Shown: one piece after another, positions 3,031 through 62,606 of the stretch
Layout: each line of letters begins with the position of its first letter
Position numbering within the stretch: the first letter of the stretch is position 1
Source of the DNA: Shigella phage SFPB
Reading direction: 5' to 3' (one strand)
Sequence record: OQ031072
Length of the DNA stretch: 64,000 nucleotides
The notes under the pieces: model-generated
The model's database searches: none
Told to the model about the DNA's origin: nothing
What the model saw: only the letters and a program-made list of their open reading frames with translations
Position numbers and translations under genes: made by a program

Positions 3031-4382
3031 ATGTGGAATCCAATTGTTAATGTAGATATTACATTGAACACAGCAGGAACTACAAGAGAAGGTTTTGGTT
3101 TACCATTATTCCTTGCTTCAACAGATAACTTTGAAGAAAGAATCCGTGGTTATACTTCATTAACAGAAGTAGCTGAAGACTTTGATGAAAGTACTGCTGC
3201 GTATAAAGCTGCAAAACAGCTATGGAGCCAAACTCAAAAGTAACTCAACTGTATATTGGTAGAAGAACTATGCAATATACTGTTTCTATTCCTGACACAG
3301 TGGCTGAAGGAAGTGAATATTCATTGACAGTTGCTATTGGTGGTGGTGTTTCTCAGCCATTCCAGTACACTGCAAAAGAAAGCGACACAGCACTTATTGT
3401 CTTGAATGAGTTTAAATCACAGATTGAAGCAAGCCCAACAATTAAAGATGGTGTTAATGTTAGTGTAACAGGTACTGGTGCTTCTGCGACGATGATTATT
3501 ACTAAAGCTGGTGATAATGACTTCGTAAAAGTAACGTCTATTACACCTACAACATCTATTGCAGCAACAACTGCTGACACGGCTTCCGCTGCTCTGGCAT
3601 CCATTGAAGCATATTCAACAGATTGGTACTTCATCTCAGCAGAAGACAGAACTCAACAGTTTGTCTTGGCAATGGCTTCAGAGATTCAGGCTCGTAAGAA
3701 GATTTTCTTCACAGCTAATGCTGACGTTAAGGCTCTGCAAGGCACTGATTTGACCTCTGCAACAGATGTTCCGGCACAGTTAGCTAAGAGCAAGTACACT
3801 CGTACAGTTTGCTTGTGGCATCACACAGCCGAGTATGACTACCCAGAAATGGCTTACATCGCATATGGTGCTCCATATGATGCAGGTTCAATTGCTTGGG
3901 GTAACGCTCAATTAACTGGTGTTGCAGCATCTCTACAACCTGCTAACCAGAGACCACTGACAAGCATTCAGAAGTCAGCTTTAGATACCCGTAGCTGTAA
4001 CTTCATTGACCTCGATGGTGGGGTTCCTGTAGTGCGTAGAGGTATCACTTCTGGTGGTGAATGGATTGATATTGTACGTGGTGTTGATTGGCTTGAATCT
4101 GATTTGAAAACATCTCTGAGAGACTTGCTAATTAATCAGAAGGGTGGTAAGATTACTTATGATGATACTGGTATTACCCGTATTCGTCAGGTCATTGAAA
4201 CATCTCTTCAGCGAGCAGTTAACAGAAACTTTTTGTCAACTTACACCGTTACTGTTCCTAAAGCCTCACAAGTTGCATTGGCAGATAAGAAAGCACGTAT
4301 CCTGAAAGACGTTACCTTCCACGGTATTCTTGCAGGGGCTATCTTGGATGTTGACTTGAAAGGCACAGTGGCTTACGAATAA
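3031..4382 (+). CDS. putative tail sheath protein, reading frame changes (-1) between about 3207 and 3243 (70-aa ORF 3031..3243 plus 386-aa ORF 3222..4382)
   Basis: Combined size (~456 aa) and position immediately upstream of the tube gene; the 22-nt out-of-frame overlap is atypical for this genome, where neighbours are TAATG/ATGA-coupled. Adding one A at A-run 3213-3216 or 3236-3239 fuses the ORFs. Confidence 0.4.
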
Positions 4383-4854: not shown

Positions 4855-4894
4855 AAGGGGAGACTGTAAAAGGTCTTCCCCTTTTGTGTTTTTA
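4855..4894 (+). terminator. rho-independent terminator after tube gene
   Basis: AAGGGGAGAC-tgtaaaag-GTCTTCCCC hairpin followed by TTTTGTGTTTTT. Confidence 0.6.
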
Positions 4895-5320: not shown

Positions 5321-5556
5321 GTTATTCTATGCAGACCCCGCTGACTGACGGGGCTGTAAAGGCAACTTATGATGAAGCAGATGAGATGAAATTTGTGCTT
5401 GCTATTTATGGTATGGATGGGTGTAAAGAAACACTCAACCAACTTTTTGATATGACCTTCGTTGATTTATTATCTCTACGTCAATATTTAGAAATCCAGA
5501 AGTCATATAAAGAAGAAATGGCTTACAACGAACTCAGAAAAGCAGGTAAAATTTAA
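5233..5556 (+). CDS. -1 frame extension of tail assembly chaperone (gpGT-like; predicted product 4919..5275 joined at -1 to 5275..5556)
   Basis: -1 frame is open from 5233; canonical slippery heptamer T_TTT_TTC at 5269-5275 in the zero frame; extension ends TAATG-coupled to the tape measure start. Confidence 0.5.
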   Translation, partial: LLSFCFGGKLRKFFRGKHFQKPNFSAGSLSYSMQTPLTDGAVKATYDEADEMKFVLAIYGMDGCKETLNQLFDMTFVDLLSLRQYLEIQKSYKEEMAYNELRKAGKI

Positions 5557-7768
5557 TGGCACAATATACAGTTGATAGTTTTATTGTTGAACTTGGATTC
5601 AGTGAAAAGGTTATTAAGGGTTTGCAAAGAGTTGAGAAAATGGCTATGCAGTCTGCTCAACGTATCGAACGCAATATCAATAAAGCCTTTGATGTGAAGC
5701 CTAATAGAAGTTCACAAGACGCTCTAAACAGACTTGTAAAAAACGCTCAGACTGCTTCAGGCAGAATCAATAAATCCCTAAACAATGCTATGAATTTAGA
5801 TTCACAAGGTGTAAAATCACTTCGTAGATTAGAAACACAGGGTAAGAAAACAGCCAAAGAAATTAATAAGGCTCTAAGACAAGCTATGAATGTTGAAGGT
5901 AAAGTCAATGTTCGTGGTGGAGTTGGTAGAGGCCGTGGTAATACTATCCCTCCGGTTGGAGGTGGTGGTTCACCTAGAGTTAGACCTGATATTGCTCAAA
6001 GACAAATGGAAAGAATGTTTAATAACAACTTCTATTCTGGTTTGACTCGTCGTCTTGAAACAATTGGTGGACAAGGTAACCAAATGGCTACTTCCTTCAG
6101 AGGAAGCTTACAAGGAATCTATAATAAGTACAAAGGTAGTGGTAAAGTTGGTGAGTATGAGATGGAAGTCAAGAAACTCATTGACACTACCAAACGTTGG
6201 GTTATTGCAGAAAATGCTAGACTTAAGGCAGTCAGAGAGTCAGCTTGGTTACAAGACAGAGCAAACTCTTCACTAAGACAGCTTGTAGGTGGTTTTGTTT
6301 CAGCGTATGCTATGCTGGAATTAGCTCAGAAGACTATTGATGCAGGTGTAAAGAGACAGTCTGCACAGTTAGCCTCAACAGCTATCTTTGGAGGGGATAC
6401 ACAGCAAGCTAGAATGTTCGCTGCTACGTTCTCTCACCAGATTGGTCAGAACTACACAGACACTATGAAGCAGTACTCAAACTTTGCTGCTGGTGCTCAG
6501 CCAGAGCTTGGTTTCCAAGGTACTCAGGAGTTCTATAAGAACGCTGCAATGTTCTCACGTATTCGTGGGGCTACTGATGAAGACTTGAAAGGTATCATGA
6601 TTGCTTTCCAGCAGATGGCATCTAAAGGTAAGATTCAGGCTGAAGAACTTCGTGGTCAGTTAGGTGACCGTTTAGCAGGTGCTGTTCAGCTATTTGCTGA
6701 TGCTATTGGGAAGACTCCACAAGAACTCGATAAGATGATGAAAGATGGTAAACTTCTTGCAAAAGATGTTCTACCAAAAGTCTCAGAAAGGATGAGAGAA
6801 CTTGTTGAAGCAGCAGGTGGTATGAATGCAGTTTCTAAGCAGACAGCTACCTCTATGGGTCAAGCCAAAGCTATGTGGGACAACACTCTTGTAGCACTCT
6901 TTAACAACTCTAGTGAAGGTATTTCACAACTTTCTAACTCTATTGCAATGTTCTTGCAAGGTTCACTTGGTACATCTCAGGCACTTGGTACAGGTATTGG
7001 TTACCTTTTGAAAGGTGCTAGTAACTTATTAGACTTCGTGACAGATATTATGTACCGCATTTCTTCATTGTACTACACAGCAATGGGTTATTACAAGGAA
7101 ATGGATGCTGGACAGCAGAAGTTAGTGAAAGAAGCTTCAGAGTTCCTTGCAACGGTTGTTGCTATTGGTGGTGCTGTAGCAACGGTTGCTAAAGTGGCGA
7201 AGCTTATCACTGGATTCTTTGATACAGCAATTGTACGAAAGATTCTTCAGAGATTTGGCATTGAGGTGGCTGAGAAAGTTGCACCAAGAGCAGCTCCATT
7301 TTTAATGCCACCTCAAGTAAAGGTAGCCTTGGCAACAATGGCACTATCTAGGTCTTCTGACCCAAATGCGGGGAAGAGATTTAATGAGGTTAATACACCT
7401 AACCCTTTCAATGAAGCTGTTTCAGGAATCACTAATCCAAAACGTCCTATGTTCTTTGACCAGAATGGACAACTCCAGTTTGCACAATACACTACAGATA
7501 CCTCTGGAAATATTCAGAGAGTTGATAACGGTTTGTCGAATTGGGATATTATCATGAACAACCTGTCTGAGTCTCTAAATAACTTTGCAAATAAGTTTAA
7601 TCAGACACCTATGATGATGACTCCTTCTGGACTCCCATTACAAACTAAGCAGACGCTTAACGTTTCCTTTAATCTGGATGGTAAGCAGATTGCTACTAAG
7701 ATGGTGGATATCACTGACAAGAATCAGGAAGATATTCTTTTAAACTCTAGCTACCCAGAGGATGAATA

Positions 7769-13276: not shown

Positions 13277-13590
13277 TGTCTCTTTCATGGTCTACAGACA
13301 CAGTTGATGCTGATGGTAACCAGCTTAAAGTTTTACCACCTCCAGAAATTCAAGCCACTGGCCTATTAAGAGGTGAACCTATGGGTCGTCAGTGGTTTAA
13401 CTATATTATCAACTATTTGCTTAACAAAGTAAATGGTACGGTTGGAGAGGTTCGTTCATTTGCTACGGAGCAACCTGATTTAGTTTCCAATGGTTGGGAA
13501 TTAATTGACACAGTAACAGGAACTGCACACACCAGCACGACTAACCTTTACACATATGAATATAAAGGAGCTAATAATGGCAGTCGGTGA
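13276..13590 (+). CDS. hypothetical structural protein
   Basis: 104-aa coupled ORF. Confidence 0.4.
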
Positions 13591-14796: not shown

Positions 14797-17175
14797 ATGG
14801 CTGAATATAAGCTAAGTGAGCTAAACAGTATTGATACAGTTCGCTCAGAAGATTTACTTCACCTAAGAATTATCAAAAGGTCTGATATGCTAGGTGATGA
14901 AGACCGTAAAATGACCTATGCAAATTTCCTTGCCTCTTTCAAACTAGAAAGATTCTTACAACTAACTGGTGGGGATATGACAGGGAATCTTGGCATCGTC
15001 AAATTAAGATACGGTGGAAAAGACTTATTAGACCCAACAGGTTCTTCTGAGGTTATTCTCGGTGACACTGCCAAGACCTTTAGAATTAATGCGAGTGCTT
15101 TAAGATTAACTGTAAACGATGCCACAAGGTCTGCAACAGTTTATCACACACTTAATAAACCATCTCCTAATGAATTAGGTATGAGAACTAATACTGAAAA
15201 TGATGCAAGATATGCTATGAAGGAAACTGAAAATACTTTCTTGGCAAGACAAATCATTAATATCAACGGTGTTGGTCTAACACTTAAAAGTGTCTTACCA
15301 GATGGTGGAGCATATATTGAAGCAAGAGATTCAAATAATGCTTTGAGATTCACAGTTGGTAACTTGACTTCTGGTACTGATGTTACATTAGTTAATAGTA
15401 AGGGTGCTACGTTGACTCTTGGCACAAACTCTGTTAGTGTTGATAAGAATTTTGAAATCAATGGGCAGGTCCAGCCTAATAACTGGAATAACCTTGATGC
15501 AAGATTCTTTACACAGACTGCTGCTGACCAGAGATTTGCAAGACTTAATGCAAGTAATCACTTTGTTGGTGTTAATAACTTCAATGGTAAGACTTATGTT
15601 ATTGCAGATAGTAATGCACTTAACTTAAGAGCGACTACAGAGAATGCTGCATTGTTTATGCGTGGTTATAACAGTGCTGGGACAGGAACTTGGTATGTAG
15701 GTCAACCAGATGGTACGCAGTCTGAGATTGTTTTAGCAAACCAGATGACAAATGTTAACTTGAAAATTGCTACAGAGTTTTCATTTAACAAAGCTATCAA
15801 TGTAACTGGTCAGGTGAAACCAAGTGACTTTTCTAACTTTGATACAAGATATGTTCCAAGCTCTTTAACGAACGTTCTTGCAAGAACTAATGCTGCAAAC
15901 GTTTTTACTAACCCACAAACTATTGTTACTACAGATGCGGCTTTCACATTGCAAAGTGGGACAGCTAATTCACCACTGTATATTGTTGGTGCTAATGCAG
16001 ACGGAAACAGACGTTGGTATGTTGGTAACGGTGAAGGTAGTAGACCAAATTCTCTATTTCTATACAACTACTCAAGCGGTGGTGTACAGTTAGAAATTGC
16101 TGATACTTTCATGTTCAATAGAAGCGTATTAGTAACTGGTCAGGTTCAGCCTACAGATTGGACAAACTTTGATACAAGATACTACACACAATCTGCTGCA
16201 AACTCAAGGTATATGCTATCTGGTGTATCTGGAACGGGAACCGAAGTTGGTGATGCAACAGGTATTGCTTGGAATGCAAAAACAGGTTTGTACAGTGTTA
16301 CAAATTCAACTGGTGGGTCTACTCACTTAGTTTACCAAATGTACCTTGGAGTTGGCGCATCTACACCAACTGCACAGTTTAAATTTAACTACAAGAATAC
16401 TGGAATCTATTATAGAACAGCAAGGGATGAGTTTGGTTTTGAAGAGGCTTGGGCTAAAATCTACACCGACAAAGACAAACCTACACCCTCTGAACTTGGT
16501 GCTTACACCAAGGCTGAAGTGGACCAACGTATTGCTTCCGCTGTAACTGATGCTACAGACCTTAAGAAAGTGTATCCGGTTGGTATTGTGACGTTCTTTG
16601 CTTCTAATGTCAACCCAAATACAGCTTTCCCAGGCACTACTTGGACTTACTTAACTGAGGGTGCAAACAGAACTATTAGGATTGGTTCTGAAAATGGTTC
16701 TGATGTGAAGGGTCTTGGTGGTGCTGATACGGTTGCATTAAGTGTTGGTCATATCCCTGCACACACTCACGGCTTCTCTGGAACAACTTCTTGGTTTGAC
16801 TATGGAACTAAGTACACAGATGGTCAGGGTGCTCACGACCATGACAGAGGTAATATGGAAATCTCTGGTAACTTTGGATGGTTTAGAAGTGATAATAACT
16901 CGTTCTACGTTGCAGACGGTGCTTTTGCAATGAGTGGTAGCCAAGGTGGGCATAGCTGGACAGGTTCTAACTTCACTTATGGTGCGCCAGTTAACTTCTA
17001 TGCTTCCAGAACTTGGACAGGTAGAACTAGTTGGGTAGGTGCTCATGCTCACGGTGTAGGTATTGGTGGACACAACCACACATTCAGTGGTAACACTGGG
17101 GCAACTGGTTCTGGTGCAGCATTCAGTGTTCTTAACACTTACATTAAACTAATGGCTTGGGTAAGAACTGCATAA
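14797..17175 (+). CDS. long tail fibre protein with three internal ~150-aa repeats and a collar/His-rich C-terminal domain paralogous to 13577..14752
   Basis: Motif (V/I)xGQVxPxxWxNxDxR(Y/F)xTQ(S/T)AA occurs three times; C-terminal HxH motifs; ends AWVRTA like the upstream fibre. Confidence 0.65.
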   Translation: MAEYKLSELNSIDTVRSEDLLHLRIIKRSDMLGDEDRKMTYANFLASFKLERFLQLTGGDMTGNLGIVKLRYGGKDLLDPTGSSEVILGDTAKTFRINASALRLTVNDATRSATVYHTLNKPSPNELGMRTNTENDARYAMKETENTFLARQIININGVGLTLKSVLPDGGAYIEARDSNNALRFTVGNLTSGTDVTLVNSKGATLTLGTNSVSVDKNFEINGQVQPNNWNNLDARFFTQTAADQRFARLNASNHFVGVNNFNGKTYVIADSNALNLRATTENAALFMRGYNSAGTGTWYVGQPDGTQSEIVLANQMTNVNLKIATEFSFNKAINVTGQVKPSDFSNFDTRYVPSSLTNVLARTNAANVFTNPQTIVTTDAAFTLQSGTANSPLYIVGANADGNRRWYVGNGEGSRPNSLFLYNYSSGGVQLEIADTFMFNRSVLVTGQVQPTDWTNFDTRYYTQSAANSRYMLSGVSGTGTEVGDATGIAWNAKTGLYSVTNSTGGSTHLVYQMYLGVGASTPTAQFKFNYKNTGIYYRTARDEFGFEEAWAKIYTDKDKPTPSELGAYTKAEVDQRIASAVTDATDLKKVYPVGIVTFFASNVNPNTAFPGTTWTYLTEGANRTIRIGSENGSDVKGLGGADTVALSVGHIPAHTHGFSGTTSWFDYGTKYTDGQGAHDHDRGNMEISGNFGWFRSDNNSFYVADGAFAMSGSQGGHSWTGSNFTYGAPVNFYASRTWTGRTSWVGAHAHGVGIGGHNHTFSGNTGATGSGAAFSVLNTYIKLMAWVRTA

Positions 17176-17183
17176 TTACCTTG

Positions 17184-17239
17184 TTGACTAACTGTCAAGA
17201 TGGTGTTAATATTTCTTAGTAGGTATTCTCACCATCTTG
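17184..17239 (+). promoter_or_regulatory. sigma70-like promoter (TTGACT-17-TAATAT) embedded in a 10-bp inverted repeat
   Basis: -35 17184-17189, -10 17207-17212; CAAGATGGTG 17196-17205 and CACCATCTTG 17230-17239. Confidence 0.4.
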
Positions 17240-17261
17240 GCTCAAGAAGTAAGGTGATTAA

Positions 17262-17456
17262 ATGCCAACCATTCTAGCAATCCTCTTGAAAAATCTTGGG
17301 GCATTCTTCTGGAAGCTTCTACTTTCTCTTCTTAGCGAATACATGATTGAAAAAGTGTTCTTCAAGCTTGCAAGATACCTTGCGAGTAAAACAGACACAC
17401 CTATTGATGATGAATTTGTAGATACCTTGGAAAAGGCTTTTAAGGGTGAAAAATAA
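17262..17456 (+). CDS. small hydrophobic protein (possible membrane/lysis-associated)
   Basis: 64 aa, N-terminal hydrophobic segment. Confidence 0.4.
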   Translation: MPTILAILLKNLGAFFWKLLLSLLSEYMIEKVFFKLARYLASKTDTPIDDEFVDTLEKAFKGEK

Positions 17457-17830
17457 TGAAGTGGATTGAAGATGCTTTTAAGAACAATATTGGTGCAATC
17501 GTTGTAGGTATTTTCAGTGTAATTGGTATGTACACTACAATGCAGGTCTCTGATGGTAAACAGGAAGTGTCTATCACAAATAAGTTACAGCAGTTGGATG
17601 GTTACTCAAAAGGTAACTATTCAGCTATTCGTGACTTACAATCTGATATGAAGCTCCTACAATTAGGGATGGAGAACCAGAAAGTTCAGCTAGAGAATGT
17701 TAAGGGAGAAAACGCTAAGTTGACTAAGACCCTTGATAAGTTCTCTGACAGTGTTAACAACTTAGCACAATCTGTATCAGCTTTGCAAGCAATTACAGAA
17801 CAAAATACCCAAAGCACTAAAAAGAAATAA
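17456..17830 (+). CDS. N-terminal transmembrane plus coiled-coil protein (holin/antiholin- or spanin-like topology)
   Basis: TM segment IGAIVVGIFSVIGMYTTM followed by heptad-rich region; located after the tail fibre genes. Confidence 0.4.
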   Translation: MKWIEDAFKNNIGAIVVGIFSVIGMYTTMQVSDGKQEVSITNKLQQLDGYSKGNYSAIRDLQSDMKLLQLGMENQKVQLENVKGENAKLTKTLDKFSDSVNNLAQSVSALQAITEQNTQSTKKK

Positions 17831-17834
17831 TTCT

Positions 17835-17862
17835 AAGGCTCCTTTTTACGGGAGCCTTTTTT
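17835..17862. terminator. bidirectional rho-independent terminator between convergent gene blocks
   Basis: AAGGCTCC-N8-GGAGCCTT stem flanked by T-run; plus and minus operons converge here. Confidence 0.6.
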
Positions 17863-17866
17863 GTTT

Positions 17867-18765
17867 CTACTTACCTACTGATAAAGGTGCTTCAATCTTA
17901 CCAGCATGTTTATACCCTTTCAACCCACCTAGAAAGTCATCTGCTGTCATATGTCTCAAGTCTTCAAGAGACTTCAAATCTTGATGAATTTCAAACTTAG
18001 GTGCTGGAAACTCTTCATTACCAAGAAGTTGAAAAACCTGCGACATATGGTTCTGGTATATTTGAGTATCACCATAAGTCCCTATCAGATATCGCGGTGT
18101 ATATCCCGTCAGTTTACACAACACTTCCAAGATAAAGGCATAGGAAGCGATGTTAAACGGTAACCCTAAGAACGTATCACAAGAACGCTGATACCATTTT
18201 AAATCCACCTCATTAGTGTTCGAGATATAAATCTGAAAAAGTACATGACAAGGTGCTAATGCCATAGAGTTACTTGAGATATCTGCTGCATTCCATGCGT
18301 TAACGAGCATGTAACGGTCTGTAGGGGACTTTCTCATCTTCTCTACAAGATTACTCAACTGGTCTACAACAACACCACCATGACCTTCGTAGGCTCTCCA
18401 TTGGACTCCGTAGATTCTTCCTCCAGCGTCCTCCAGCCAATCATTCTCTGTAGCATAGGTTGTTTTCAACCAACGTTTAAAATCATCTGTCCAGATAGTC
18501 CAACGCTCTCCGTCGTTCTCCCCCAAGTTCTGTAACGCAAATGGCCTAGTTGGTTTTCACCGTTCATAAACCATAATGCTTCACCGAGGACTTGACGCAT
18601 AAATGTTTGTTTTGAGGTGATTAATGGGAATCCACTACGCATATCAAAACGGAACTCAGGTGGAGCAAAGGTCGAAATCACTGAGCCAGTTCGGGTTTTA
18701 CGCAACTCACCAACTGATAAAACATGGTTTAAAATAGCTTTGTAGCTTACATCTGCTTGTGACAT
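17867..18765 (-). CDS. thyA: thymidylate synthase, frame interrupted (N-terminal ORF 18466..18765, C-terminal ORF 17867..18526); apparent 1-nt deficit at the G5/C5 run 18520-18524
   Basis: N-terminal part has RTGxG...FPLITSK...LWF; C-terminal part has ...WNAADISSNSMALAPCH...FQ..Y and LGLPFNIASYA; the two ORFs are in different frames. Confidence 0.85.
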
Positions 18766-18780
18766 ATTAGAAACGTCCTC

Positions 18781-19311
18781 TTACTTGTGGAACATAGGTA
18801 TCAAACACCACAGACTTATCTTCTGAGGTTTGGACTGTACTTTAGCAAATAACTCTGTGTCATACAAGTACTGGAAGAAACCCTCATAAGGTAGCTTGAC
18901 AGTAGCCTCTTCAGTAACTTCCTTAATAACACTGTGGAAAACTACGTCAGCATACGGCAAAGCTGAGATTAAGATATTGGCTCCACCGATTACTAAAACA
19001 TCTTCCTCAATAGAACTATCAATATACTTTAGGAAAGCCCCAAAAGCTTCAGACTTAACTCTTGCTTTGCAATGAGAGTCATCTTTAAAGTCCAGACCAT
19101 AAAAGTCAAGAGAGTTTGTTAAGACAAGGTTCTCACGGTTTGGCAAAGGTTTGCTCCCAAGAGTCTTCCAAGTTTCGCTACCCATCAAGACTAACTGGTT
19201 AACAGTCTGCTTCTTAAACTCTGCCATATCTTGTTTATTACGAGGCCAAGGCATTCCAGTAGCTGTGCCAAACTCCCCGTTAATACCACTTGCAAAAATT
19301 AACTTAATCAT
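18781..19311 (-). CDS. frd: dihydrofolate reductase
   Basis: MIKLIFASGINGEFG..MPW N-terminus typical of DHFR; adjacent to thyA as in T4-type phages. Confidence 0.75.
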   Translation of the reverse strand: MIKLIFASGINGEFGTATGMPWPRNKQDMAEFKKQTVNQLVLMGSETWKTLGSKPLPNRENLVLTNSLDFYGLDFKDDSHCKARVKSEAFGAFLKYIDSSIEEDVLVIGGANILISALPYADVVFHSVIKEVTEEATVKLPYEGFFQYLYDTELFAKVQSKPQKISLWCLIPMFHK

Positions 19312-19580
19312 TTTGTAAATCCTTTGATAATGAACCAGTTTAGAACACGCTTCACAATCCTGTTCGGATGGTAAATAAGGTGAGGCTGTGGTTCATAACT
19401 TCCATAAGCCCAAAAAGATAAAATCTTTCCACATCCACAGCAACGGGTGTACCCTTCAGCGATATTGCCAGAGACAATCTCTGAAACTTCACCTTGGAAG
19501 TTCTCACCTCCACAATGGCAGCATTTAACTGGCTCACCATTATTCATGTAACACTGTGATACTCCGCTTAAGATTTTCAT
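19308..19580 (-). CDS. Cys-rich zinc-binding small protein
   Basis: CCHCGG...CCGCG motifs; ATGA-coupled. Confidence 0.4.
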   Translation of the reverse strand: MKILSGVSQCYMNNGEPVKCCHCGGENFQGEVSEIVSGNIAEGYTRCCGCGKILSFWAYGSYEPQPHLIYHPNRIVKRVLNWFIIKGFTK

Positions 19581-20092
19581 TTTTTGTTTACCTTAAAAGT
19601 GCGTTCAAATTTTAGTATGAAATCAAGGTCATCAACTTCACTTGACAGAAAATCTTCAAAGTGTTTTGGCACAAAGTCTAAGAAACTCATAGAACCAAAG
19701 TCACCTGTCAGTTTGATAGTTCCTTGTTCATACTCAGCAGTTACTACATGACCACCTTCAGTCTGCTTAACAATCTCTACAATATCAGCTATGAAGATGT
19801 TTAGCAATGCTTTAAAACTTCTTGGATACTGTGTATCTGAGTACAGTTCAATACTTGGCTCCAGATTAACTTCAATAGAACGACTATCCCGTAGCTCTGG
19901 AGTAAATAAGTGAGCAGGAAGAACACACAGAGAGTCAGCAGTGTCTTCATCGATGAACTCAATAGTTCCTGCATCATAGTTTGTATCAATCAAGAATGTC
20001 TTCTCAGTATGATATGTAGCTTTCATATGCTCAGACAACATTGATTTCAAGAATTCTGCTTCAGGCTGGCAAAGGGTAATTCCAATTTTCAT
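19577..20092 (-). CDS. hypothetical protein
   Basis: 171-aa coupled ORF. Confidence 0.45.
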   Translation of the reverse strand: MKIGITLCQPEAEFLKSMLSEHMKATYHTEKTFLIDTNYDAGTIEFIDEDTADSLCVLPAHLFTPELRDSRSIEVNLEPSIELYSDTQYPRSFKALLNIFIADIVEIVKQTEGGHVVTAEYEQGTIKLTGDFGSMSFLDFVPKHFEDFLSSEVDDLDFILKFERTFKVNKK

Positions 20093-30167: not shown

Positions 30168-30359
30168 ATGAGAGAGAATAACTTTAAAGTAATTGACCAC
30201 CGTACAGTGGAACTCTCATCTCTTTCCAAAGAAGTTATGATGGAGCGACTTGAAAGGGTCGCTTCAAGAAGGAAAGAGATTGCAGAAGAAATCCATGAGC
30301 TTGATAAGATTGAAAACGGTCTTAAGGCAGAACTACAACGAAGAGGTGTGAATGGCTAA
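30168..30359 (+). CDS. hypothetical small protein; start trimmed
   Basis: ORF with SD AAGGTG. Confidence 0.4.
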   Translation: MRENNFKVIDHRTVELSSLSKEVMMERLERVASRRKEIAEEIHELDKIENGLKAELQRRGVNG

Positions 30360-32342
30360 ACAGAGAAAACTGAAAGATGCTGGAACATTTGTAGGTCACT
30401 GTGCATGTCCACGCCCTCAATGTTTATCTTCAGATGCAGGTTCTATATATCGTCATGATGACGGTTCATATTCAATGACATGTTTCAGTTGTGGAAAAGG
30501 TTTTCCAGAGTGGGATTTTGATAAAGGGCAGATTGTGAGTACTCATACTTCAGGTTCAGAGAATAAAAACCGTACATTTCGTGGTATGGATTTAGATGAT
30601 GTGAAAGAAAACCTAGAAGCAATGGATTTAAAAGACAGGAAGATTCCTGCAAAAGTCCTTGAGCGCCTTGGTATTAAAGTTGATATTGACGACAATGGTG
30701 ACATTGATGCGCACTTCTATCCAACATACAAAAAAGATGAAGATGGTAAGTTGCAACATGTAGGTTATCGTGTTCGTCACAAATATCCAGATGATTATCA
30801 CAAAGAGCACTTACGTGGGAAGTTGAAAGACTTTTCTGGTGGTGTCGGAGATATCAAAGGTGAACTGGCTATGTTCGGTTCATGGATTGCTCCAGAAGGT
30901 GGTAACCGTCTTTTCATCTGGGAAGGTGAGATGGAATGTGCTACAGCAATCTACATGACTTCTTTAGCAATTAAAGATAAGTCTAGACGTAAGAATTACT
31001 GCCACGTTTCTGTACCATCCGGTGCTAATGTTAAGTCTATCAAAGAGAACTATCAGTATATTACTTCCTTTGATGAGATTTACCTATGCTTTGATAATGA
31101 TGAAGCAGGGGCTAAAGCAACTAAGGAAGCTGCTGGTATCTTACCTATTGAAAAAGTAAGACTGTTCCAGTATCCTGAAGGTATTAAAGACCTTAGTGAG
31201 TGGTGGACTAAGTTCTTCAAAGACAAAGATACAGTCTTGGAAGGATTTAAACAACGAATCTACAATGCACCTCGTTACTGCCCTGCTGGTATCAAGAACT
31301 TTGCAGATGGTTTCGATGCTATGAAGAATCGTGGTCAGATTCCTTTAATTCCTTTCCCAGATTCTTTCGGGGATTTGAATAAGTTGACTTATGGCGGGTA
31401 TGGTTTAGGTGAGATTACAACCCTTGCTGCACCTTCATCTGTAGGTAAGTCTGCATATACTCGTGAAATGATTTACAAAGCATGGAAAGATACTGAGTAC
31501 AACATCGGTGTAATTCCTGTAGAAGACACTTACGAAGAACTTATGGAAATGCTCTGTGCAATCCATCTTAGTAAGCAGATTTCAGAGATTCCTTACGATG
31601 AGCGTAATTGGGATGAGATTAAGGTTGCACATGCTGAGTTGTCAAAAGGTCGTCGTATTCACATCGTAGACCACCAAGGGGCAATTGACCAAGATAACCT
31701 GCTGGAGTTTGTTGACTATCTGGTTAACAGCCTTGATTGTAAGATTATCATTCTTGACCCTATTACATTGGCGCTGTCACGCTCTGATACAGATGAAGAA
31801 GAAGTTCTGTCTGAGTTACTTCGTCGCTGTAAGCGTTATCAGTATGCTCAGGTAAACGTGTGTCACGTTCGTAAGAGTGCAGGTGGTCAAAAGGCCAACT
31901 CTGAAGGTGGTGATATTTCTGAAGAAGATATCAAGGGTTCTGGTGCATACTTCCAGATTTCCATGAACAACATTTTGCTTATGCGTAACAAGGTTGACCC
32001 AGACCCTGTTAAAAAGAACTTGACAAAATCAAGTTAACGAAATGTCGTCGTCATGGTAAATCAACTGGTATTGCTGGTCACACTTGGTACAATCCAGATA
32101 CAGGCCGTCTTGTAAAGGCTGCTGGATGTGGTGTTGATATTGATGGTGCAGCAGAGAATATTCGTCAGCAGTTTGGTATTGGTGAGGCTGAAGACCATTA
32201 TGATGACTCTATGCCACACTATGAAGATGTTGATTTTGACCGTGAATCTGGAGAGATTTACACACAAGAGCAACGTGAAAGCTCCACCATTCCACCTGTG
32301 ATTAACGAGGATAATGATGACTGTCCGTTCGAAACTGATTGA
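30352..32342 (+). CDS. T7 gp4-like primase-helicase; frame interrupted at A5 run 32011-32015 (frame A ends 32037, C-terminus continues in -1 frame to 32342)
   Basis: N-terminal Cys4 zinc finger; primase acidic motif FIWEGEMECATA; Walker A GLGEITTLAAPSSVGKSAYT; the -1 frame after the A-run encodes KLTKCRRHGKSTGIAGH..., matching the T7 gp4 C-terminus. Confidence 0.85.
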
Positions 32343-32814: not shown

Positions 32815-33222
32815 ATGTCTAAAGTTGTTAAAATGAAAGCTCCGGTAGAGAAGTACAATGGTCAAGAACGTGAGACTCTGCGTTACCTACTGAAAGATGT
32901 TTGGTTCTATTACCTGAACACTATTCCACGTCCTCAAAAGGGTAAATCTGTGGATAAGCATTTTCCGGGCAAAGATTGTAACTACAGCGTTTCAATTCTG
33001 GCAAAAGATGGTAACAAGCTCTTTAAAGAGTTCACCAAATCCAAGCGCAATGCTGAAGGTTGGGATAAAGTTACTACAGAGGCTGTTGATGCAGATGACT
33101 TCGAAGAGAAGTTTGGTTGTGAGCCTCCGTTTGAAGCTGACACCTATCACATCCTGAAGGTTAGCCGTTCAGCAGCATATAAAGACGGTGCTGTGTGGTC
33201 AGCAAAACAGAGTTTCCTGTAA
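32815..33222 (+). CDS. hypothetical protein
   Basis: 135-aa ORF with SD. Confidence 0.5.
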   Translation: MSKVVKMKAPVEKYNGQERETLRYLLKDVWFYYLNTIPRPQKGKSVDKHFPGKDCNYSVSILAKDGNKLFKEFTKSKRNAEGWDKVTTEAVDADDFEEKFGCEPPFEADTYHILKVSRSAAYKDGAVWSAKQSFL

Positions 33223-33674
33223 TGCTGGTTGAAGAAATCAACGGTAAGCGTGTTGCAGTTAAGCAGCCTATGAAGAAAATCAAGGCAGCAAAATCTGATA
33301 AGCACGATGATGATAAGACTTACGATGTAATTCATCCAGATATTGCAGTTGGTAACGGCTCATTTGGTAGTGTGATTCTGGCGACTCACTTCTACACATT
33401 TGAAGGTAACGTTCTGACCAAGCCAATTCAGGAACAATTTATCATTGATACTCTGGTTCCTTACACTGGTGGTACTGGTGGTGCTACTGAGACTGAACTG
33501 GATGAAGATGAACTGGCAATGCTTGGTCTTGCAGGTGTTGAAGACAACGGTGAAATCACTGAAGAAGATGCAAAAGATTCTGGTGATGAAGGTAAAGGTG
33601 GTGATGACGATGACGACGACCTACCAAACCCAGATGATGACGACGAAGATGATTTCGAAACTGACGACGAGTAA
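33222..33674 (+). CDS. protein with long acidic C-terminal tail (possible ssDNA-binding or replisome-interacting protein)
   Basis: C-terminus ...DDDDDDLPNPDDDDEDDFETDDE; TAATG-coupled; sits between helicase and flap endonuclease. Confidence 0.35.
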   Translation: MLVEEINGKRVAVKQPMKKIKAAKSDKHDDDKTYDVIHPDIAVGNGSFGSVILATHFYTFEGNVLTKPIQEQFIIDTLVPYTGGTGGATETELDEDELAMLGLAGVEDNGEITEEDAKDSGDEGKGGDDDDDDLPNPDDDDEDDFETDDE

Positions 33675-33736: not shown

Positions 33737-34777
33737 ATGGAACAATACACCTTAACAAAGCTCCCAGAGAGCGTTACACACGTCTTTATTGACTCTGATA
33801 GCATTGCTTACAAAGGTGCTTGTGTAGTTGAAAAAGCAAAGTACAAGTATGTGAATAAAATCACTGCTGAAGAATCCGACGCTTTTGATAGTGCAAAACT
33901 GGCAGCACAATGGCTGTCTGACCAAAGAGTTTTAACTGAAGAGTTAGGACTTGACTTTGATGAAGATGAATGGGAAAGACAGACTTGGAAGGAGGCTAAG
34001 AGTGAAGCTGAAGCAATTATGGCTACACAGCAAGTTCTTCAGGAGTGGTTGAAAGTCGTTGGTAAAGAACGCAAATGGATGGGTTACCTTACTGAGAAAG
34101 GTGTTCACAAACACAAGGATATCAAAGGTCTTGAACACCAATATCAAGGTAACAGAAAAGAAGCTGTAACACCTACACACCTAGTTGCTTGTCGTGAGTA
34201 TCTTCTGTCACGACCAGAGTTTAAGCTCTTAAAAGGGGGCTTCGAAGCAGACTCTATCGTTATTGCAAAAGCTGAGAAGATGGGGAAAAAAGCTGCTCTG
34301 ATGAGTATTGATAAAGACCTTCGTCAAGCTGAAGGAACTTACTGTATTGATATGACTTACGAGAAAGCTCCATTAATTTTCATTGCAGATAATAACGTTG
34401 GTGAGATTTGGGATTGCCCTATCAAATCTAAACCGAAAGCTAAGAAGACAGTCGGAGTAGGTTTTAAATTCCTCTGCTATCAAGCTGTAGCAGGTGATAA
34501 TGCAGACAACTACTTCGGTTTAAAAGGTGCTGGTAAGGTTGCGGTGATGAATGCACTGGAAGGTAAAACTACCTACAAAGAGTGCTTAGATGCCATCTAT
34601 GAACTTTATGCTAAGAAAGAGTCATACACTTATGAATCGTGGGATGGTCAGATTGTGACAAGAACTCCACTAGAATTAATGGAGCAACACTTCTGGATTG
34701 CTTATCAAGAACGAAATCCTAAAGATGATTTTACGTTTAAAAAATACAATTGGGAGCCAGTTATGAATGAAGATTAA
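33737..34777 (+). CDS. 5'-3' exonuclease / flap endonuclease (RNase H-like); start trimmed
   Basis: H3TH-like segment LCYQAVAGDNADNYFGLKGAGKVAV; N-terminal acidic nuclease fold residues. Confidence 0.6.
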   Translation: MEQYTLTKLPESVTHVFIDSDSIAYKGACVVEKAKYKYVNKITAEESDAFDSAKLAAQWLSDQRVLTEELGLDFDEDEWERQTWKEAKSEAEAIMATQQVLQEWLKVVGKERKWMGYLTEKGVHKHKDIKGLEHQYQGNRKEAVTPTHLVACREYLLSRPEFKLLKGGFEADSIVIAKAEKMGKKAALMSIDKDLRQAEGTYCIDMTYEKAPLIFIADNNVGEIWDCPIKSKPKAKKTVGVGFKFLCYQAVAGDNADNYFGLKGAGKVAVMNALEGKTTYKECLDAIYELYAKKESYTYESWDGQIVTRTPLELMEQHFWIAYQERNPKDDFTFKKYNWEPVMNED

Positions 34778-36239: not shown

Positions 36240-36546
36240 TAAAGGTGAAGAAGTGGTGGCAAAAAGCCACTTCTCCAACTACAACCTCTCTATGACAGTG
36301 TTTATGAATGATTCACTGTTAGACAAGTACGGAGAGAAGCCAGAAACGATTCTGGATAATGAACAAGTATTAGCAGCAGTGTTGTATAAGTATGGCTTAA
36401 ATATTGATAAACCGTACTCTTACGAGATTTGCCAGCATAGAAATACTTTTGGTAAAGTTGTTGTAGCCCCCCTGTTCATGGGTGTAGAGCGCACAGATGA
36501 CCAGTGGATTTACTTGAAACGAAACTTGGATAGATACCATGTCTAA
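36220..36546 (+). CDS. hypothetical protein
   Basis: 108-aa ORF. Confidence 0.4.
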   Translation: MDSQNINKGEEVVAKSHFSNYNLSMTVFMNDSLLDKYGEKPETILDNEQVLAAVLYKYGLNIDKPYSYEICQHRNTFGKVVVAPLFMGVERTDDQWIYLKRNLDRYHV

Positions 36547-52425: not shown

Positions 52426-53538
52426 ATGACTACTAAGACTAAAGCACAAATCGACGCAGAAATCTATGCACTGGTTAAAGAAGGTAAACTGACCAAAACT
52501 GCAATCGCTCTGAAGTATAACACTTCAACCCGTTCGGTAGGTCGTGCTGTAGAGCGTCATGAAGCAACGCTGCTGTCAGGGAAAACCAAAGCAAAACCTG
52601 CAAAGACTCTGAAAGATATTGCTAAGAAAGCTAAAGCAACCAAGAAAGTATCTAAGCAGAAAACTGTTGCAAAAGCTGTTAAAGAAGCAGTCAAAACAGA
52701 ACCTGTGAATGCTCTGCATGAAGCAATGCAGAATAACAGCCAGATTGAATACATGATTACTGGTGATTCTGTTATCATGACTTTCGGTGCAGAGTCTGAG
52801 ATTGTTGAGTCAACTCATCCTAACTACACTGATATTGTAATGGCTGTTGTTTCAGGTGAGTACAAGAAAGCTTTTGAACTGATGAACATTCACAAGTCTA
52901 TTGAGAACTTCACTCAAGGTGCTGTAACCATCAAAGGTGACAACCTGTATTACGGTGCTGTTCAGATGCGCTCAACTCTGGTAGACCGTATTCTGGATAT
53001 GATGAAGAAAGGTGATAATGGTTTTGTTCGACTGATTGCATTCTTCGAAAAACTTATGGAAAACCCATCAAAAGATTCTGTAGAACAACTTTGGGGCTTC
53101 GTATCACACCTTGATGTTGAAATTGATGAAGAAGGTTATATCATCGGCTGGAAGAAAGTCACAACCCGTGGTGGTAAACTGTTTGACTCTCGTACCTGCA
53201 AAGTTCCAAATGATTTGGGTAACATTGTAGAGATGCCACGTTGGATGGTTGATAATAACCGTCATGTAACCTGCTCTCAGGGTCTGCACGTTGGTGCTTG
53301 GGATTATGTAACTAGCTTCTCTGGTGACACTATCCTGAAAGTTCGTGTTCATCCTCGTGATGTTGTTTCAGTACCAACTGACTACAACGACATGAAAATG
53401 CGAGCTTCCCGTTATGAAGTTGCAGCGATTGTAAATAGTCGCCGTGAAGTCATCAAAGAGTGGGATGGTTCAGAAGCACTCCACGTAGTTGTAGGTACTG
53501 CTGGTGAACTGATTTCTCAGCGTAAACGTGAAGTCTAA
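52426..53538 (+). CDS. rIIB: rIIB-like protein (by position and size)
   Basis: 370-aa ORF directly downstream of rIIA-like gene; no motif recognised. Confidence 0.4.
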   Translation: MTTKTKAQIDAEIYALVKEGKLTKTAIALKYNTSTRSVGRAVERHEATLLSGKTKAKPAKTLKDIAKKAKATKKVSKQKTVAKAVKEAVKTEPVNALHEAMQNNSQIEYMITGDSVIMTFGAESEIVESTHPNYTDIVMAVVSGEYKKAFELMNIHKSIENFTQGAVTIKGDNLYYGAVQMRSTLVDRILDMMKKGDNGFVRLIAFFEKLMENPSKDSVEQLWGFVSHLDVEIDEEGYIIGWKKVTTRGGKLFDSRTCKVPNDLGNIVEMPRWMVDNNRHVTCSQGLHVGAWDYVTSFSGDTILKVRVHPRDVVSVPTDYNDMKMRASRYEVAAIVNSRREVIKEWDGSEALHVVVGTAGELISQRKREV

Positions 53539-58152: not shown

Positions 58153-58238
58153 TTGACTCTATGAATCCAGTTTTGTAGTATTTGCATCAACGGGGCAAGA
58201 TAAAGCCCCAACAATCCTAAACTGGAGAATCTAGAATG
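58153..58238 (+). promoter_or_regulatory. early-promoter cassette, variant B: TTGACT-17-TAGTAT, 5'UTR hairpin GGGGC-N8-GCCCC, CCTAAACTGGAGA RBS
   Basis: -35 58153-58158, -10 58176-58181, hairpin 58191-58208, ATG 58236. Confidence 0.6.
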
Positions 58239-58442
58239 TTATATCAACGGGAATTAATGATTGTAGACAATAACAAAACTAAAAAACGTCGCTTCTTTAT
58301 GTTAATCTGTGACGTGTGGCAAAGAATATCTGAAAAGGATTATGACAAGTATGTTGATACATCAATCAGGTCGGATTGTTATTTGACAAATCACACAAGA
58401 CAGTTTACAAGACATACAGCAGTTTACTACTATGACGTTTAA
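58236..58442 (+). CDS. hypothetical small protein
   Basis: 68 aa; canonical cassette spacing. Confidence 0.5.
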   Translation: MLYQRELMIVDNNKTKKRRFFMLICDVWQRISEKDYDKYVDTSIRSDCYLTNHTRQFTRHTAVYYYDV

Positions 58443-58453
58443 AGGGCTTGACA

Positions 58454-58615
58454 ATGATTAAAGAAGGCAATGTAATAAGCTACAAAGATTTAGACGGATA
58501 CCCAAAAATTGGGAAAGTTTTCTACCTTTACAAGTCAGTGATGGATAATGACTGCATAGCCCTAACAAATGGCGACAAGATAACCATGAAAGATTTTATA
58601 AAAATTATTTCATAA
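58454..58615 (+). CDS. hypothetical small protein (53 aa), not in ORF track
   Basis: SD AAAGGG 8 nt upstream; stop abuts next cassette. Confidence 0.35.
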   Translation: MIKEGNVISYKDLDGYPKIGKVFYLYKSVMDNDCIALTNGDKITMKDFIKIIS

Positions 58616-58707
58616 AGTGCTTTACATGGGGTTTAAAAAGGTAGTATCTTAAGCCCCAGATAAAGAGCTTTACCACTAAACAATCCTAAACTGGAGATTC
58701 TAAAATG
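58616..58707 (+). promoter_or_regulatory. early-promoter cassette, variant A: AAGTGCTTTACA(-35) ... TAGTAT, hairpin GGGGTTTAA-N12-TTAAGCCCC, CCTAAACTGGAGA RBS
   Basis: repeat family member; ATG 58705. Confidence 0.6.
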
Positions 58708-59088
58708 AAAAAATATTATATGCCAAAATTCATCAAGAAAGAAAACTTTCGTGATGCTCTGGAAAAATACATGAATGAGCAGTTCAAAGGTAAATTAATT
58801 GTTGTCCACGCATACAATTTTAAGTATGATGTAAATGGAAACAAGACAAATCACTATACCGCTACGATGCTGGATGGTACACTCTCAGGTGAAAAAGCCA
58901 TTATCAATGCACTGGCTGGACGTGGTAAAACGTTGATACGTTGTGATAAACGCCGATATCAGGGCAGTTCTTATGGTTATGAGGATGCAGTCTATCACCT
59001 TGATAACATGGGTTACAATGTCGAAAAAGCTGGCGTGTCTCAAATGATTGGTAGTGATGGATATGTGACAATTTTTAAAATTAACTAA
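58705..59088 (+). CDS. hypothetical protein
   Basis: 127 aa, cassette-driven. Confidence 0.5.
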   Translation: MKKYYMPKFIKKENFRDALEKYMNEQFKGKLIVVHAYNFKYDVNGNKTNHYTATMLDGTLSGEKAIINALAGRGKTLIRCDKRRYQGSSYGYEDAVYHLDNMGYNVEKAGVSQMIGSDGYVTIFKIN

Positions 59089-59090
59089 TA

Positions 59091-59178
59091 AAGTGCTTTA
59101 CATGGGGTTTATAGTTCAATAAGATAAGCCCCAGATAAAGAACTTTATTACTAACCTAAACTGGAGATTCAAAAAATG
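59091..59178 (+). promoter_or_regulatory. early-promoter cassette, variant A
   Basis: AAGTGCTTTACA-17-TAAGAT, hairpin, CCTAAACTGGAGA; ATG 59176. Confidence 0.6.
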
Positions 59179-59433
59179 GCTACCATTAAAAACATCGTAA
59201 TTACTGCAAAATCCCGTGATGATGCTCGTGCAACTGCTAAAAAATTAAATGGTAAAGTGGTTGACAACGGAAAAGATTCTACTGTAAGATGGGGCGTAAA
59301 GACAGACAAAAAATTAACTCTTAAACATAGCTCTTACAATATGTTTAAAGGTGTAAAAACTATCGGTAACACTAACGTGTTTACAAAACAGGGTTACAAA
59401 ATGCACTTAGCATTAATTGGCAATTTAATCTAA
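59176..59433 (+). CDS. hypothetical small basic protein
   Basis: 85 aa. Confidence 0.5.
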   Translation: MATIKNIVITAKSRDDARATAKKLNGKVVDNGKDSTVRWGVKTDKKLTLKHSSYNMFKGVKTIGNTNVFTKQGYKMHLALIGNLI

Positions 59434-59522
59434 AAGTACTTTACATGGGGTTTATAAGTCGATAGTATAAGCCCCAGATAAAGAGCTTTACCAACAATCC
59501 TAAACTGGAGATTCAAAAAATG
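59434..59522 (+). promoter_or_regulatory. early-promoter cassette, variant A
   Basis: AAGTACTTTACA-17-TAGTAT, hairpin GGGGTTTATA/TATAAGCCCC, RBS; ATG 59520. Confidence 0.6.
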
Positions 59523-60032
59523 AAATCAGTCGAAAGCACCTTTGAAGTTCAAAAAGAAAAATTTACTATCATCTTTGAAGCAATGAATGTTTATGAGCCT
59601 TCCCATTGTGTGGATAACTGGCAATTCACTGATGAGCATAAAGGAGGAGTTACAATCAAAGTTAAAAACTCAGAACGTAACGGCTACAAATATGCAATTC
59701 CTATGCACTATGCGCTTTCACAGCTTGCCAGTGATTACGCAAAACAGGGAAGGGATAACCCATCATTAGCCGCTTACAAGAGCTTACAAGATGAACTAGA
59801 AAGGGATTTAGGGGCTAATAGCTACATTCTATACGCCTCAGTAGTTGACGCTGAAGGCAACACGGTTTTAAATAGTTTTTCCCTTGCGTATGGTTTTGAT
59901 TGGTGCTATCTTGACGGGGAAGATTTAGATTCACGCTTAAAAGAGGAAGTAAGCAATTCAGGTGCTGAAGAGGAAGTTTTAGAGCGCTTGGAAGATTTAA
60001 AAGATAGTGTGATGAATATCTTTAATATCTAA
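59520..60032 (+). CDS. hypothetical protein
   Basis: 170 aa. Confidence 0.5.
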   Translation: MKSVESTFEVQKEKFTIIFEAMNVYEPSHCVDNWQFTDEHKGGVTIKVKNSERNGYKYAIPMHYALSQLASDYAKQGRDNPSLAAYKSLQDELERDLGANSYILYASVVDAEGNTVLNSFSLAYGFDWCYLDGEDLDSRLKEEVSNSGAEEEVLERLEDLKDSVMNIFNI

Positions 60033-60120
60033 AAGTACTTTACATGGGGGTTATCAAGTTGCTAAGATAGCCCCAGATAAAGAGCTTTACCAACAATCCT
60101 AAACTGGAGAATCTAAAATG
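60033..60120 (+). promoter_or_regulatory. early-promoter cassette, variant A
   Basis: AAGTACTTTACA-18-TAAGAT, hairpin, RBS; ATG 60118. Confidence 0.6.
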
Positions 60121-60408
60121 AAAATTCCTGCTAATGTACGCTCAAAGTTAAGCCAATTACTACAAAACATTTCTTTTGTAGAATCTCATAGACGTTCACA
60201 GGATGTTATAGAGTGGTATCATGGGAAGATTAACAAGAAAGAAGTTTTAATCTGTATTTGGAACTTTCAAAAAGAACATGGCAAGCCATTGCTTCAGGTT
60301 GACATTTATGATAATACTAGCAAATCAGCAGTAAAATCAAAAGCTGATATGATTGATTCATATGAAATTAGTCACACTGGTAGATTATCACACGTTGGGA
60401 AGGTTTAA
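60118..60408 (+). CDS. hypothetical protein
   Basis: 96 aa. Confidence 0.5.
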   Translation: MKIPANVRSKLSQLLQNISFVESHRRSQDVIEWYHGKINKKEVLICIWNFQKEHGKPLLQVDIYDNTSKSAVKSKADMIDSYEISHTGRLSHVGKV

Positions 60409-60409
60409 A

Positions 60410-60736
60410 ATGTTACTTTCTGGTATCGCAATTCTGATTTCAATTGTGGCGCTATGTAAAGCTTATCAAGCCTCAGCATATGCAGATAAGGCCATCACAA
60501 GGAAAGTTAAAATAAACCTTGTAAGTAGCTTCTTAGAGCGTTTAAGCGTGGAACAATTACAACGTTTAGAGATGGGCTTCAGGTTTAAGGCAGACACTTA
60601 TCAAATCAGTGATGTTTTATCCGGTAACTTTGAGCTTGTTAATGATTACAATACGTTACTAAATGCTATTCAAGCTACTGATTTAAAAGAATATTATCCG
60701 GCTATTGCACAAGAAATTAATAAACGCAAAAAATAG
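60410..60736 (+). CDS. small membrane protein; start trimmed
   Basis: N-terminal TM LLSGIAILISIVALC; in frame with track ORF 60353..60736. Confidence 0.45.
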   Translation: MLLSGIAILISIVALCKAYQASAYADKAITRKVKINLVSSFLERLSVEQLQRLEMGFRFKADTYQISDVLSGNFELVNDYNTLLNAIQATDLKEYYPAIAQEINKRKK

Positions 60737-60737
60737 C

Positions 60738-60822
60738 TTGCAAAGGCAAATCAAAACAAGTAAAGTACTCATCAACGGGGCAAGCAAGCCCCCAACAATC
60801 CTAAACTGGAGAATCTAAGATG
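60738..60822 (+). promoter_or_regulatory. early-promoter cassette, variant B (TTGCAA-17-TAAAGT, hairpin GGGGCAAGCAAGCCCCC, RBS)
   Basis: -35 60738-60743, -10 60761-60766; ATG 60820. Confidence 0.6.
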
Positions 60823-61092
60823 TATACAACTAATAATGGCAGAACTTTAAATGTAACTTTAAAGCACTATGTAGATGGTGTATTAAACTTTGAAGACTTG
60901 CAAGCAGAACAGCACTTGTTAGCTTGGCAAGTAGCAGGATTACAAAAAACCGCCACCGGATATGGGAAGAAAATCCCTACATCTTGGAAAGTTCGATACC
61001 TTGGAAAGTTACGCAGAATTTATCAAGATGTTTACAGTAATAGTGGTGTAAGTTACATTATTGTTAGTGGTAAAAAGTTACATCTTGCTTAA
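60820..61092 (+). CDS. hypothetical protein
   Basis: 90 aa. Confidence 0.5.
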   Translation: MYTTNNGRTLNVTLKHYVDGVLNFEDLQAEQHLLAWQVAGLQKTATGYGKKIPTSWKVRYLGKLRRIYQDVYSNSGVSYIIVSGKKLHLA

Positions 61093-61094
61093 TA

Positions 61095-61182
61095 AAGTGC
61101 TTTACATGGGGTTTATAAGTCGATAGTATAAGCCCCAGATAAAGAACTTTATCACTAACCTAAACTGGAGATTCAAAAAATG
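61095..61182 (+). promoter_or_regulatory. early-promoter cassette, variant A (near-identical to copy at 59434)
   Basis: AAGTGCTTTACATGGGGTTTATAAGTCGATAGTATAAGCCCCAGATAAAGAAC...; ATG 61180. Confidence 0.6.
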
Positions 61183-61581
61183 GCTACGAACAAAGATATA
61201 GCAGTACTGAAAGCACGTTTGACCGTTAACCGTATTAATGCTATCACATCAACCGCACCAGATGAGGTTTTACATAACATTATCGGTAAAATTCAGGGTG
61301 TAATTTTAGACGTTGAAAACATCAGAAATTCACTTGCAAATGTTGCACAGGGTGTTACACTTGACGGCGCACAATATGAAATGGCTGATATGCTTTCAAA
61401 GTCAAAAGTTCTTAATAAAGAATTAGACTTGAAAATGTTTCGATTTGCTGTTAAAGTGTGGTTATCTGTTGAGTTTGATGCTAACTTTGCAATTGCTGAT
61501 TTCTTTGCAACGTGGTTACAACGTAATTTAGAAAAGCAAGATTTTCAAGATATCTGCGATACAATTTACGCAGAACTTTAA
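61180..61581 (+). CDS. hypothetical protein
   Basis: 133 aa. Confidence 0.5.
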   Translation: MATNKDIAVLKARLTVNRINAITSTAPDEVLHNIIGKIQGVILDVENIRNSLANVAQGVTLDGAQYEMADMLSKSKVLNKELDLKMFRFAVKVWLSVEFDANFAIADFFATWLQRNLEKQDFQDICDTIYAEL

Positions 61582-61588
61582 AAAACGT

Positions 61589-61675
61589 TTGACACTAATT
61601 TTTAGATAGATTAAAGTACTCATCAACGGGGCAAGACAGAAGCCCCAACAATCCTAAACTGGAGATTCAAAAATG
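61589..61675 (+). promoter_or_regulatory. early-promoter cassette, variant B (TTGACA-17-TAAAGT, hairpin, RBS)
   Basis: -35 61589-61594, -10 61612-61617; canonical ATG 61673. Confidence 0.6.
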
Positions 61676-61677
61676 AA

Positions 61678-62229: not shown

Positions 62230-62292
62230 ACCATACAATCACACTAACAACATTCAAAAGCCCTGTATAGGGGCTTACAAGGGGTTTAAATC

Positions 62293-62529: not shown

Positions 62530-62606
62530 AGTACTTTACATGGGGCTTTAAACCTTGCTACTATAAGCCCCAGATAAAGAGCTTTCCTAAACTGGAGATT
62601 CAAATG
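62529..62606 (+). promoter_or_regulatory. early-promoter cassette, variant A (shortened 3' part)
   Basis: AAGTACTTTACA-18-TACTAT, hairpin, CCTAAACTGGAGA; ATG 62604. Confidence 0.55.

Follow-up and report, generated by a model that had tools for sequence, protein, structure and literature searches.

Homopolymer under-calling as the probable origin of a split thymidylate synthase gene in a Mooglevirus genome sequence

Introduction

The closest described counterparts of the locus considered here are the ThyA proteins of Mooglevirus phages, represented by those of Henu11 (Gp91, UTC26120.1) and Sf14 (YP_009618601.1), which are encoded downstream of dhfr by a gene that converges with a holin gene over a shared hairpin, a probable terminator. 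Another phage thymidylate synthase seen as two open reading frames (ORFs) is that of the T4 td gene, which carries a group I intron, and it is from this one historical precedent that the notion of an intron in a divided phage thyA derives. Phage thymidylate synthase genes, such as td of T4, are dispensable on thyA+ hosts, which counts in favor of gene loss where such a gene is found broken, and runs of six G are real mutational hot spots prone to slippage. Split genes may also have a technical origin. Unpolished assemblies of Nanopore or flow-based reads under-call homopolymers, leaving deletion-biased single-base errors that frameshift conserved genes throughout the genome and recur at the same run in independent assemblies.

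The window (the whole 64-kb stretch of DNA analyzed here) carries thyA in the same place as Henu11 and Sf14 and, after restoration of one G, at the same length. In contrast to the thyA genes of these phages, it has five G in place of six G or GGGGAG, and hence its ORF lies in two frames. Our comparative analysis indicates that this split is very probably an artefact of assembly or base calling, namely a homopolymer under-call, and not biology.

Results

The thyA gene as written in the window

The split gene comprises the following features:

17867-18765, minus strand: whole thyA gene, 899 nt in the window versus 900 nt in relatives, collinear with thyA of Henu11, Sf16 and HP1 minus one base
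18466-18765, minus strand: ORF of the N-terminal thyA fragment, 99 aa with an ATG start (ORF list, Pfam; by tblastn residues 1-84 of Sf14 ThyA, frame -2)
17867-18526, minus strand: ORF of the C-terminal thyA fragment, 219 aa (ORF list, Pfam; by tblastn residues 82-299 of Sf14 ThyA, frame -1, 99.5% identity)
18520-18524, minus strand: run of five G, one base short (five C on the plus strand), where relatives have six G or GGGGAG

The initial annotation had placed the two halves of thymidylate synthase in different frames with a 61-nt overlap, and both the ORF list and the profile matches bear this out. The two ORFs overlap by exactly 61 nt (18466-18526), and the Pfam family Thymidylat_synt (PF00303) matches the 99-aa ORF at profile positions 2-80 (E = 1.2e-14) and the 219-aa ORF at positions 77-266 of 266 (E = 1e-54), so that the two are abutting halves of one ThyA. 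On the minus strand the junction reads AGA ACT TGG GGG AGA ACG, with the five G at 18524-18520, and a shift of -1 leads from the N-terminal frame to the C-terminal one. The final 17 residues of the 99-aa ORF, RTTESVGLSGQMILNVG, are out-of-frame read-through, and the first in-frame start of the 219-aa ORF is a fortuitous TTG. The catalytic motifs PCH and YQRSCD lie on the C-terminal fragment (LAPCHVLFQ and WYQRSCDTFLGLPFNIASYA), and the N-terminal fragment carries KTRTGSV with the phosphate-binding Arg of RTG. Judged by the family, neither fragment should be active by itself, because these residues are distributed over both.

The dhfr gene (19311 to about 18767, minus strand) lies directly upstream of thyA. 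On the other side, between the convergent holin (plus strand) and thyA (minus strand) genes, a GGCTCC/GGAGCC hairpin with flanking A and T runs occupies 17837-17856. It probably serves both genes as a bidirectional intrinsic terminator, and phages Michonne and Mordin have an annotated terminator in the holin-thyA region as well.

Repair by one G and comparison with intact relatives

Insertion of one G into the run at 18520-18524, from which a continuous ThyA-like ORF had been predicted, indeed gives an uninterrupted ORF of 299 aa, reading RYRTWGENDGERWTIW. The repaired protein is identical to Henu11 ThyA at 299 of 299 residues and differs from Sf14 ThyA at 1 of 299. Thymidylate synthases of solved structure in the PDB can be aligned with it over its full length; in the case of E. 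coli ThyA, residues 8-296 correspond to residues 4-263 (E about 1e-48). Both fragments together cover the full PF00303 profile, and the catalytic Cys, the YQRS-D motif and the RTG Arg of the ThyA family are all present.

The corresponding site reads GGGGGG in Henu11 and GGGGAG in Sf16 and HP1, and thyA is intact in all three, with 900 nt. Over the thyA region (1.6 kb) the window is 99.1% identical to Shigella phage Henu11 and likewise to Henu12, while Citrobacter phage BSwM KMM2 and Shigella phages Sf14-Sf19, ESh20, KPS64 and 3HA14 reach 97-98% identity. All of these are Mooglevirus phages (Ounavirinae, Felix O1-like myoviruses), as is the phage of the window, whose best database matches have 93-99% identity.

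Aligned with four relatives, thyA is collinear, the one gap being a single base and nothing being inserted, and an Rfam search of positions 17000-20000 gave no match at E<=1 to any family, group I introns included. There is therefore no intron in thyA, in agreement with the initial annotation, which had judged the overlap far too short for a td-type group I intron, and the reading in which an intron, an intein-like element or another mobile insertion interrupts the gene can be discarded. Unlike T4 td, the window thyA has no intervening sequence, and its 61-nt overlap comes from a frame change, not from an insertion.

A genuine replication slippage from six to five G would make thyA a recent pseudogene, leaving the phage to rely on host ThyA for dTMP. 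Runs of six G do slip naturally, yet the gene is free of secondary decay. Downstream of the shift, the codons of the ThyA frame differ from those of Henu11 by 3 synonymous and 0 non-synonymous changes and from those of Sf14 by 17 synonymous changes and 1 non-synonymous change; by this comparison the C-terminal part has neither decayed nor acquired further stops. Together with the evidence on other records and other genes presented below, this makes a pseudogene unlikely.

Alternatively, five G could be real and the gene recoded, either by a -1 slip of P-site tRNA-Gly on G_GGG or by RNA polymerase stutter adding one G, with a mixture of the 99-aa and full-length products as outcome. The needed shift is indeed -1, re-pairing of tRNA-Gly from GGG (18518-18520, frame 0) to the overlapping GGG would be perfect, and the product would have the wild-type sequence TWGENDG. 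Folding of the 111 nt that begin at the run is somewhat more stable than that of shuffled sequences (-25 kcal/mol, z = -2.64). However, in-frame relatives carry the same downstream sequence, so this modest signal is uninformative as to a frameshift stimulator, and the Rfam search of 17000-20000 was equally empty at E<=1 in this respect. The junction U_UGG_GGG is not a slippery heptamer of the form X_XXY_YYZ, and a tract of five G is shorter than known transcriptional slippage tracts. Nor is the two-frame arrangement of thyA conserved, since more than 15 Mooglevirus records have the gene in a single frame with the same downstream sequence. Recoding is accordingly regarded as extremely improbable.

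The five-G state in other records

Genomes of the Henu11 and Sf14 type (about 88 kb) have no more than two G/C 6-mers, the thyA run and the C6 of the gp071 homologue, and the thyA run is therefore one of the two most error-prone G/C sites. The state of the thyA run was compared across about 20 GenBank records of related phages. With a 61-nt query spanning the site, gap-free matches were confined to Citrobacter phages KMM2 and KMM4; 15 other Mooglevirus records have the extra base, and 5 more align only from base 16 and are thus unscored by this query. Both KMM2 and KMM4 show the same five-G state and the same split ORFs of 99 and 219 aa as the window, with thyA deposited as two CDSs, and their annotations (OP902295.1, loci L007/L008, and OP902293.1) give the fragments as separate hypothetical proteins.

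That five G is written in two further deposited genomes would favor a pseudogene if these were reliable at homopolymers. Both come from one study and were assembled with Flye from MinION R9.4.1 reads only, with no Illumina data or polishing mentioned (PMC10383413). In these unpolished Nanopore assemblies (OP902295 and OP902293) the second C6 run is also collapsed, to C5, whereas it is C6 in 15 other records. KMM2 moreover has at least 7 conserved genes split, among them those for DNA polymerase (in three pieces), exonuclease, dNMP kinase and prs and the gp071 and gp103 homologues. The window differs from KMM2 and KMM4 in that its second C6 run is intact (36467-36472), although it has lost bases from short runs (CC, GGG). 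Over the 1.6 kb around thyA the window is nearer to Henu11 (99.1%, six G) than to KMM2 (98.1%). Simple inheritance therefore does not account for the five-G state that they share; as far as the compared sequences tell, this state goes with the error-prone platform and not with the clade.

When the 99-aa fragment was looked up as an exact protein, the sole hits were KMM2 and a Logan contig of SRR22580849. This contig, although it encodes the truncated protein, adds little to the case for a pseudogene: along 2141 nt it shows 100% identity to KMM2, and for this reason it probably stems from the KMM2 material itself and does not count as a separate observation. Exact-pattern scans of IMG/VR and JGI metagenomes found the intact form only and not the five-G variant, and a scan of GTDB genomes with the exact pattern matched neither form.

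The occurrence of five G in the window, KMM2 and KMM4 could also be taken as true and as a sign that the G run is hypermutable in this one lineage of Mooglevirus, acting as an on/off slippage switch of thyA or tolerated through low-level -1 bypass by tRNA-Gly. We consider this very unlikely, and the homopolymer under-call remains the preferred reading of the three records.

One-base deletions across the window

The window was aligned to the rebuilt complete genomes of Henu11, KMM2 and Sf14, and the state of each candidate site was read in all three. The alignment revealed eight isolated 1-nt indels separating the window from the consensus of these genomes:

3235, plus strand: CC to C in the tail sheath gene (3031-4382), which is split; repair gives a 450-aa ORF
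4857-4860, plus strand: G5 to G4 in the intergenic Shine-Dalgarno-like sequence AAGGGGGAG, ahead of the gene for the tail assembly chaperone
13567-13568, plus strand: GGG to GG in the ribosome-binding region of tail fibre gene 1, which falls at the end of gp106
18520-18524, C6 to C5 on the plus strand: thyA; repair gives the 299-aa ORF
18827-18828, minus strand: CCC to CC (GGG to GG on the plus strand) near the 3' end of dhfr (18767-19311); repair gives 181 aa
27888-27889, plus strand: CCC to CC immediately upstream of the start of the minus-strand DNA polymerase gene
32025-32028, plus strand: A5 to A4 in the primase-helicase gene (30352-32342), which is split; repair gives a 663-aa ORF
33216-33217, plus strand: CCC to CC in the gp077 homologue (32815-33674), which is split; repair gives a 286-aa ORF

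All eight are deletions in the window (chance probability 0.004) and all eight fall inside homopolymers. Seven lie in runs of at least 3 (chance probability of seven or more, 3e-5) and seven in G/C runs (4e-6 for seven or more, G/C runs of at least 2 containing 12.8% of bases). Five of the eight break conserved genes, those for tail sheath, ThyA, dihydrofolate reductase (dhfr) and primase-helicase and the gp077 homologue, and each single-base repair restores a full-length ORF. As written, dhfr has about 17 terminal residues replaced and encodes 176 aa versus 181 aa, ending 15 nt early. A tblastn search with 83 Sf14 proteins detected 81 genes in the window, 5 of them split across frames, and the same control on Henu11 found 0 of 76 genes split.

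As is established for myoviruses, a contractile-tailed lytic phage needs both its tail sheath and its replicative primase-helicase, and one that forms plaques can lose neither. With these two indispensable genes broken, not all of the deletions can be real, and the indel calls of the window are generally unreliable. The seven homopolymer deletions outside thyA, two of them in genes that a myovirus cannot do without, therefore speak against reading the thyA deletion by itself as a natural slip. They speak against recoding as well, because the sites of the other four broken genes (e.g. ACT-CAAAA) are not slippery and would be left unexplained.

Two further kinds of length difference were noted along the same alignment. 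Compared with Henu11 and Sf14, the rIIB gene (52426-53535) has a 9-nt in-frame deletion of TGCAAAGAG at 52620, where there is a short direct repeat. This deletion, in contrast to the 1-nt ones, leaves the reading frame unchanged and resembles ordinary natural variation. Gaps in the divergent segment at 34.7-43.2 kb were considered as hidden frameshifts and rejected, since tblastn shows nrdA, nrdB, nrdD and the other genes there to be intact, and the gaps are thus paired alignment effects of divergence.

Other features of the window

In Sf14 (58951-59442) and in Henu11 (about 500 nt) an HNH homing-endonuclease gene lies between the exonuclease gene and a GIY-YIG gene. It is absent from the window at about 34738-34768, so that this mobile endonuclease gene is polymorphic for presence or absence. 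In the gene for the tape measure protein (5556-7766), about 245 nt at 7120-7365 have no DNA-level alignment to Henu11, KMM2 or Sf14 and form a local mosaic segment, and the tape measure protein as a whole is only 90% identical to that of Sf14. At 58210-62621 (plus strand), a conserved intergenic module recurs in about nine copies that precede successive small ORFs. Each is laid out as AAAGTGCTTTACATGGGG, a hairpin, AAGCCCCAGATAAAGAGCTTT and then AACAATCCTAAACTGGAGATTCAAAAATG, and the modules look like repeated cassettes of early promoter, 5' leader and Shine-Dalgarno sequence of Felix O1-like phages.

Discussion

The evidence from the repaired gene, the related records and the remainder of the window points in the same direction. 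The thyA indel lies in a homopolymer and its reversion restores the ORF; the same assembly contains multiple deletion-biased errors that hit conserved and essential genes; and the same thyA site stands at five G in the Nanopore-only assemblies KMM2 and KMM4. The true genome would most likely have six G at 18520-18524 (minus strand), as Henu11 does, and the true gene would encode an ordinary full-length 299-aa ThyA directly after dhfr. Of the six G, one would have been under-called, through the same type of error as at no fewer than seven other places in the 64-kb window. Direction, context and consequences of the deletions can be read off directly, and from them we infer both the error at the level of reads and the kind of platform behind it.

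This agrees with the ranking of the initial annotation, in which a homopolymer sequencing error came first and a pseudogene or slippage site was held less likely. The former is now supported by the six G of Henu11, by the eight homopolymer deletions and by the restriction of five G among other records to Nanopore-only assemblies, whereas the latter is disfavored by the lack of decay, of a slippery heptamer and of a conserved two-frame arrangement. The same annotation had taken a one-base deficit in the primase-helicase as a sign of a systematic artefact; the deficit is confirmed as A5 to A4 at 32025-32028, and the pattern extends to eight sites, including dhfr, tail sheath and the gp077 homologue, which that annotation did not contain.

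Two points count against an artefact. The window keeps C6 at 36467-36472 while CC and GGG runs lose bases, which is not the simplest pattern, in which the longest runs fail first, and a genuine slip from six to five G would be tolerated, thyA being dispensable on thyA+ hosts for many phages. With Nanopore and flow-based under-calling the window shares one-base homopolymer deletions, frameshifted conserved genes and recurrence at the same run; it differs in that several errors lie in runs of 2-3 bases and one 6-mer is correct, so that the error profile is not assignable to a specific technology.

The records of the window, KMM2 and KMM4 thus appear to contain uncorrected homopolymer deletions that create false split genes, a matter of data quality and not of biology. 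Anyone looking in genomes of this kind for pseudogenes, recoding sites or 'novel small ORFs' would be led astray, and the eight sites given here form a concrete correction list for the window sequence. Should five G be true after all, the locus would show, as a modest example, how a mutational hot spot can cost a phage a gene of nucleotide metabolism that it can do without. Under the preferred reading, a homopolymer under-call, the biological novelty of the split thyA is essentially nil, and the phage would carry an ordinary Mooglevirus dhfr-thyA pair.
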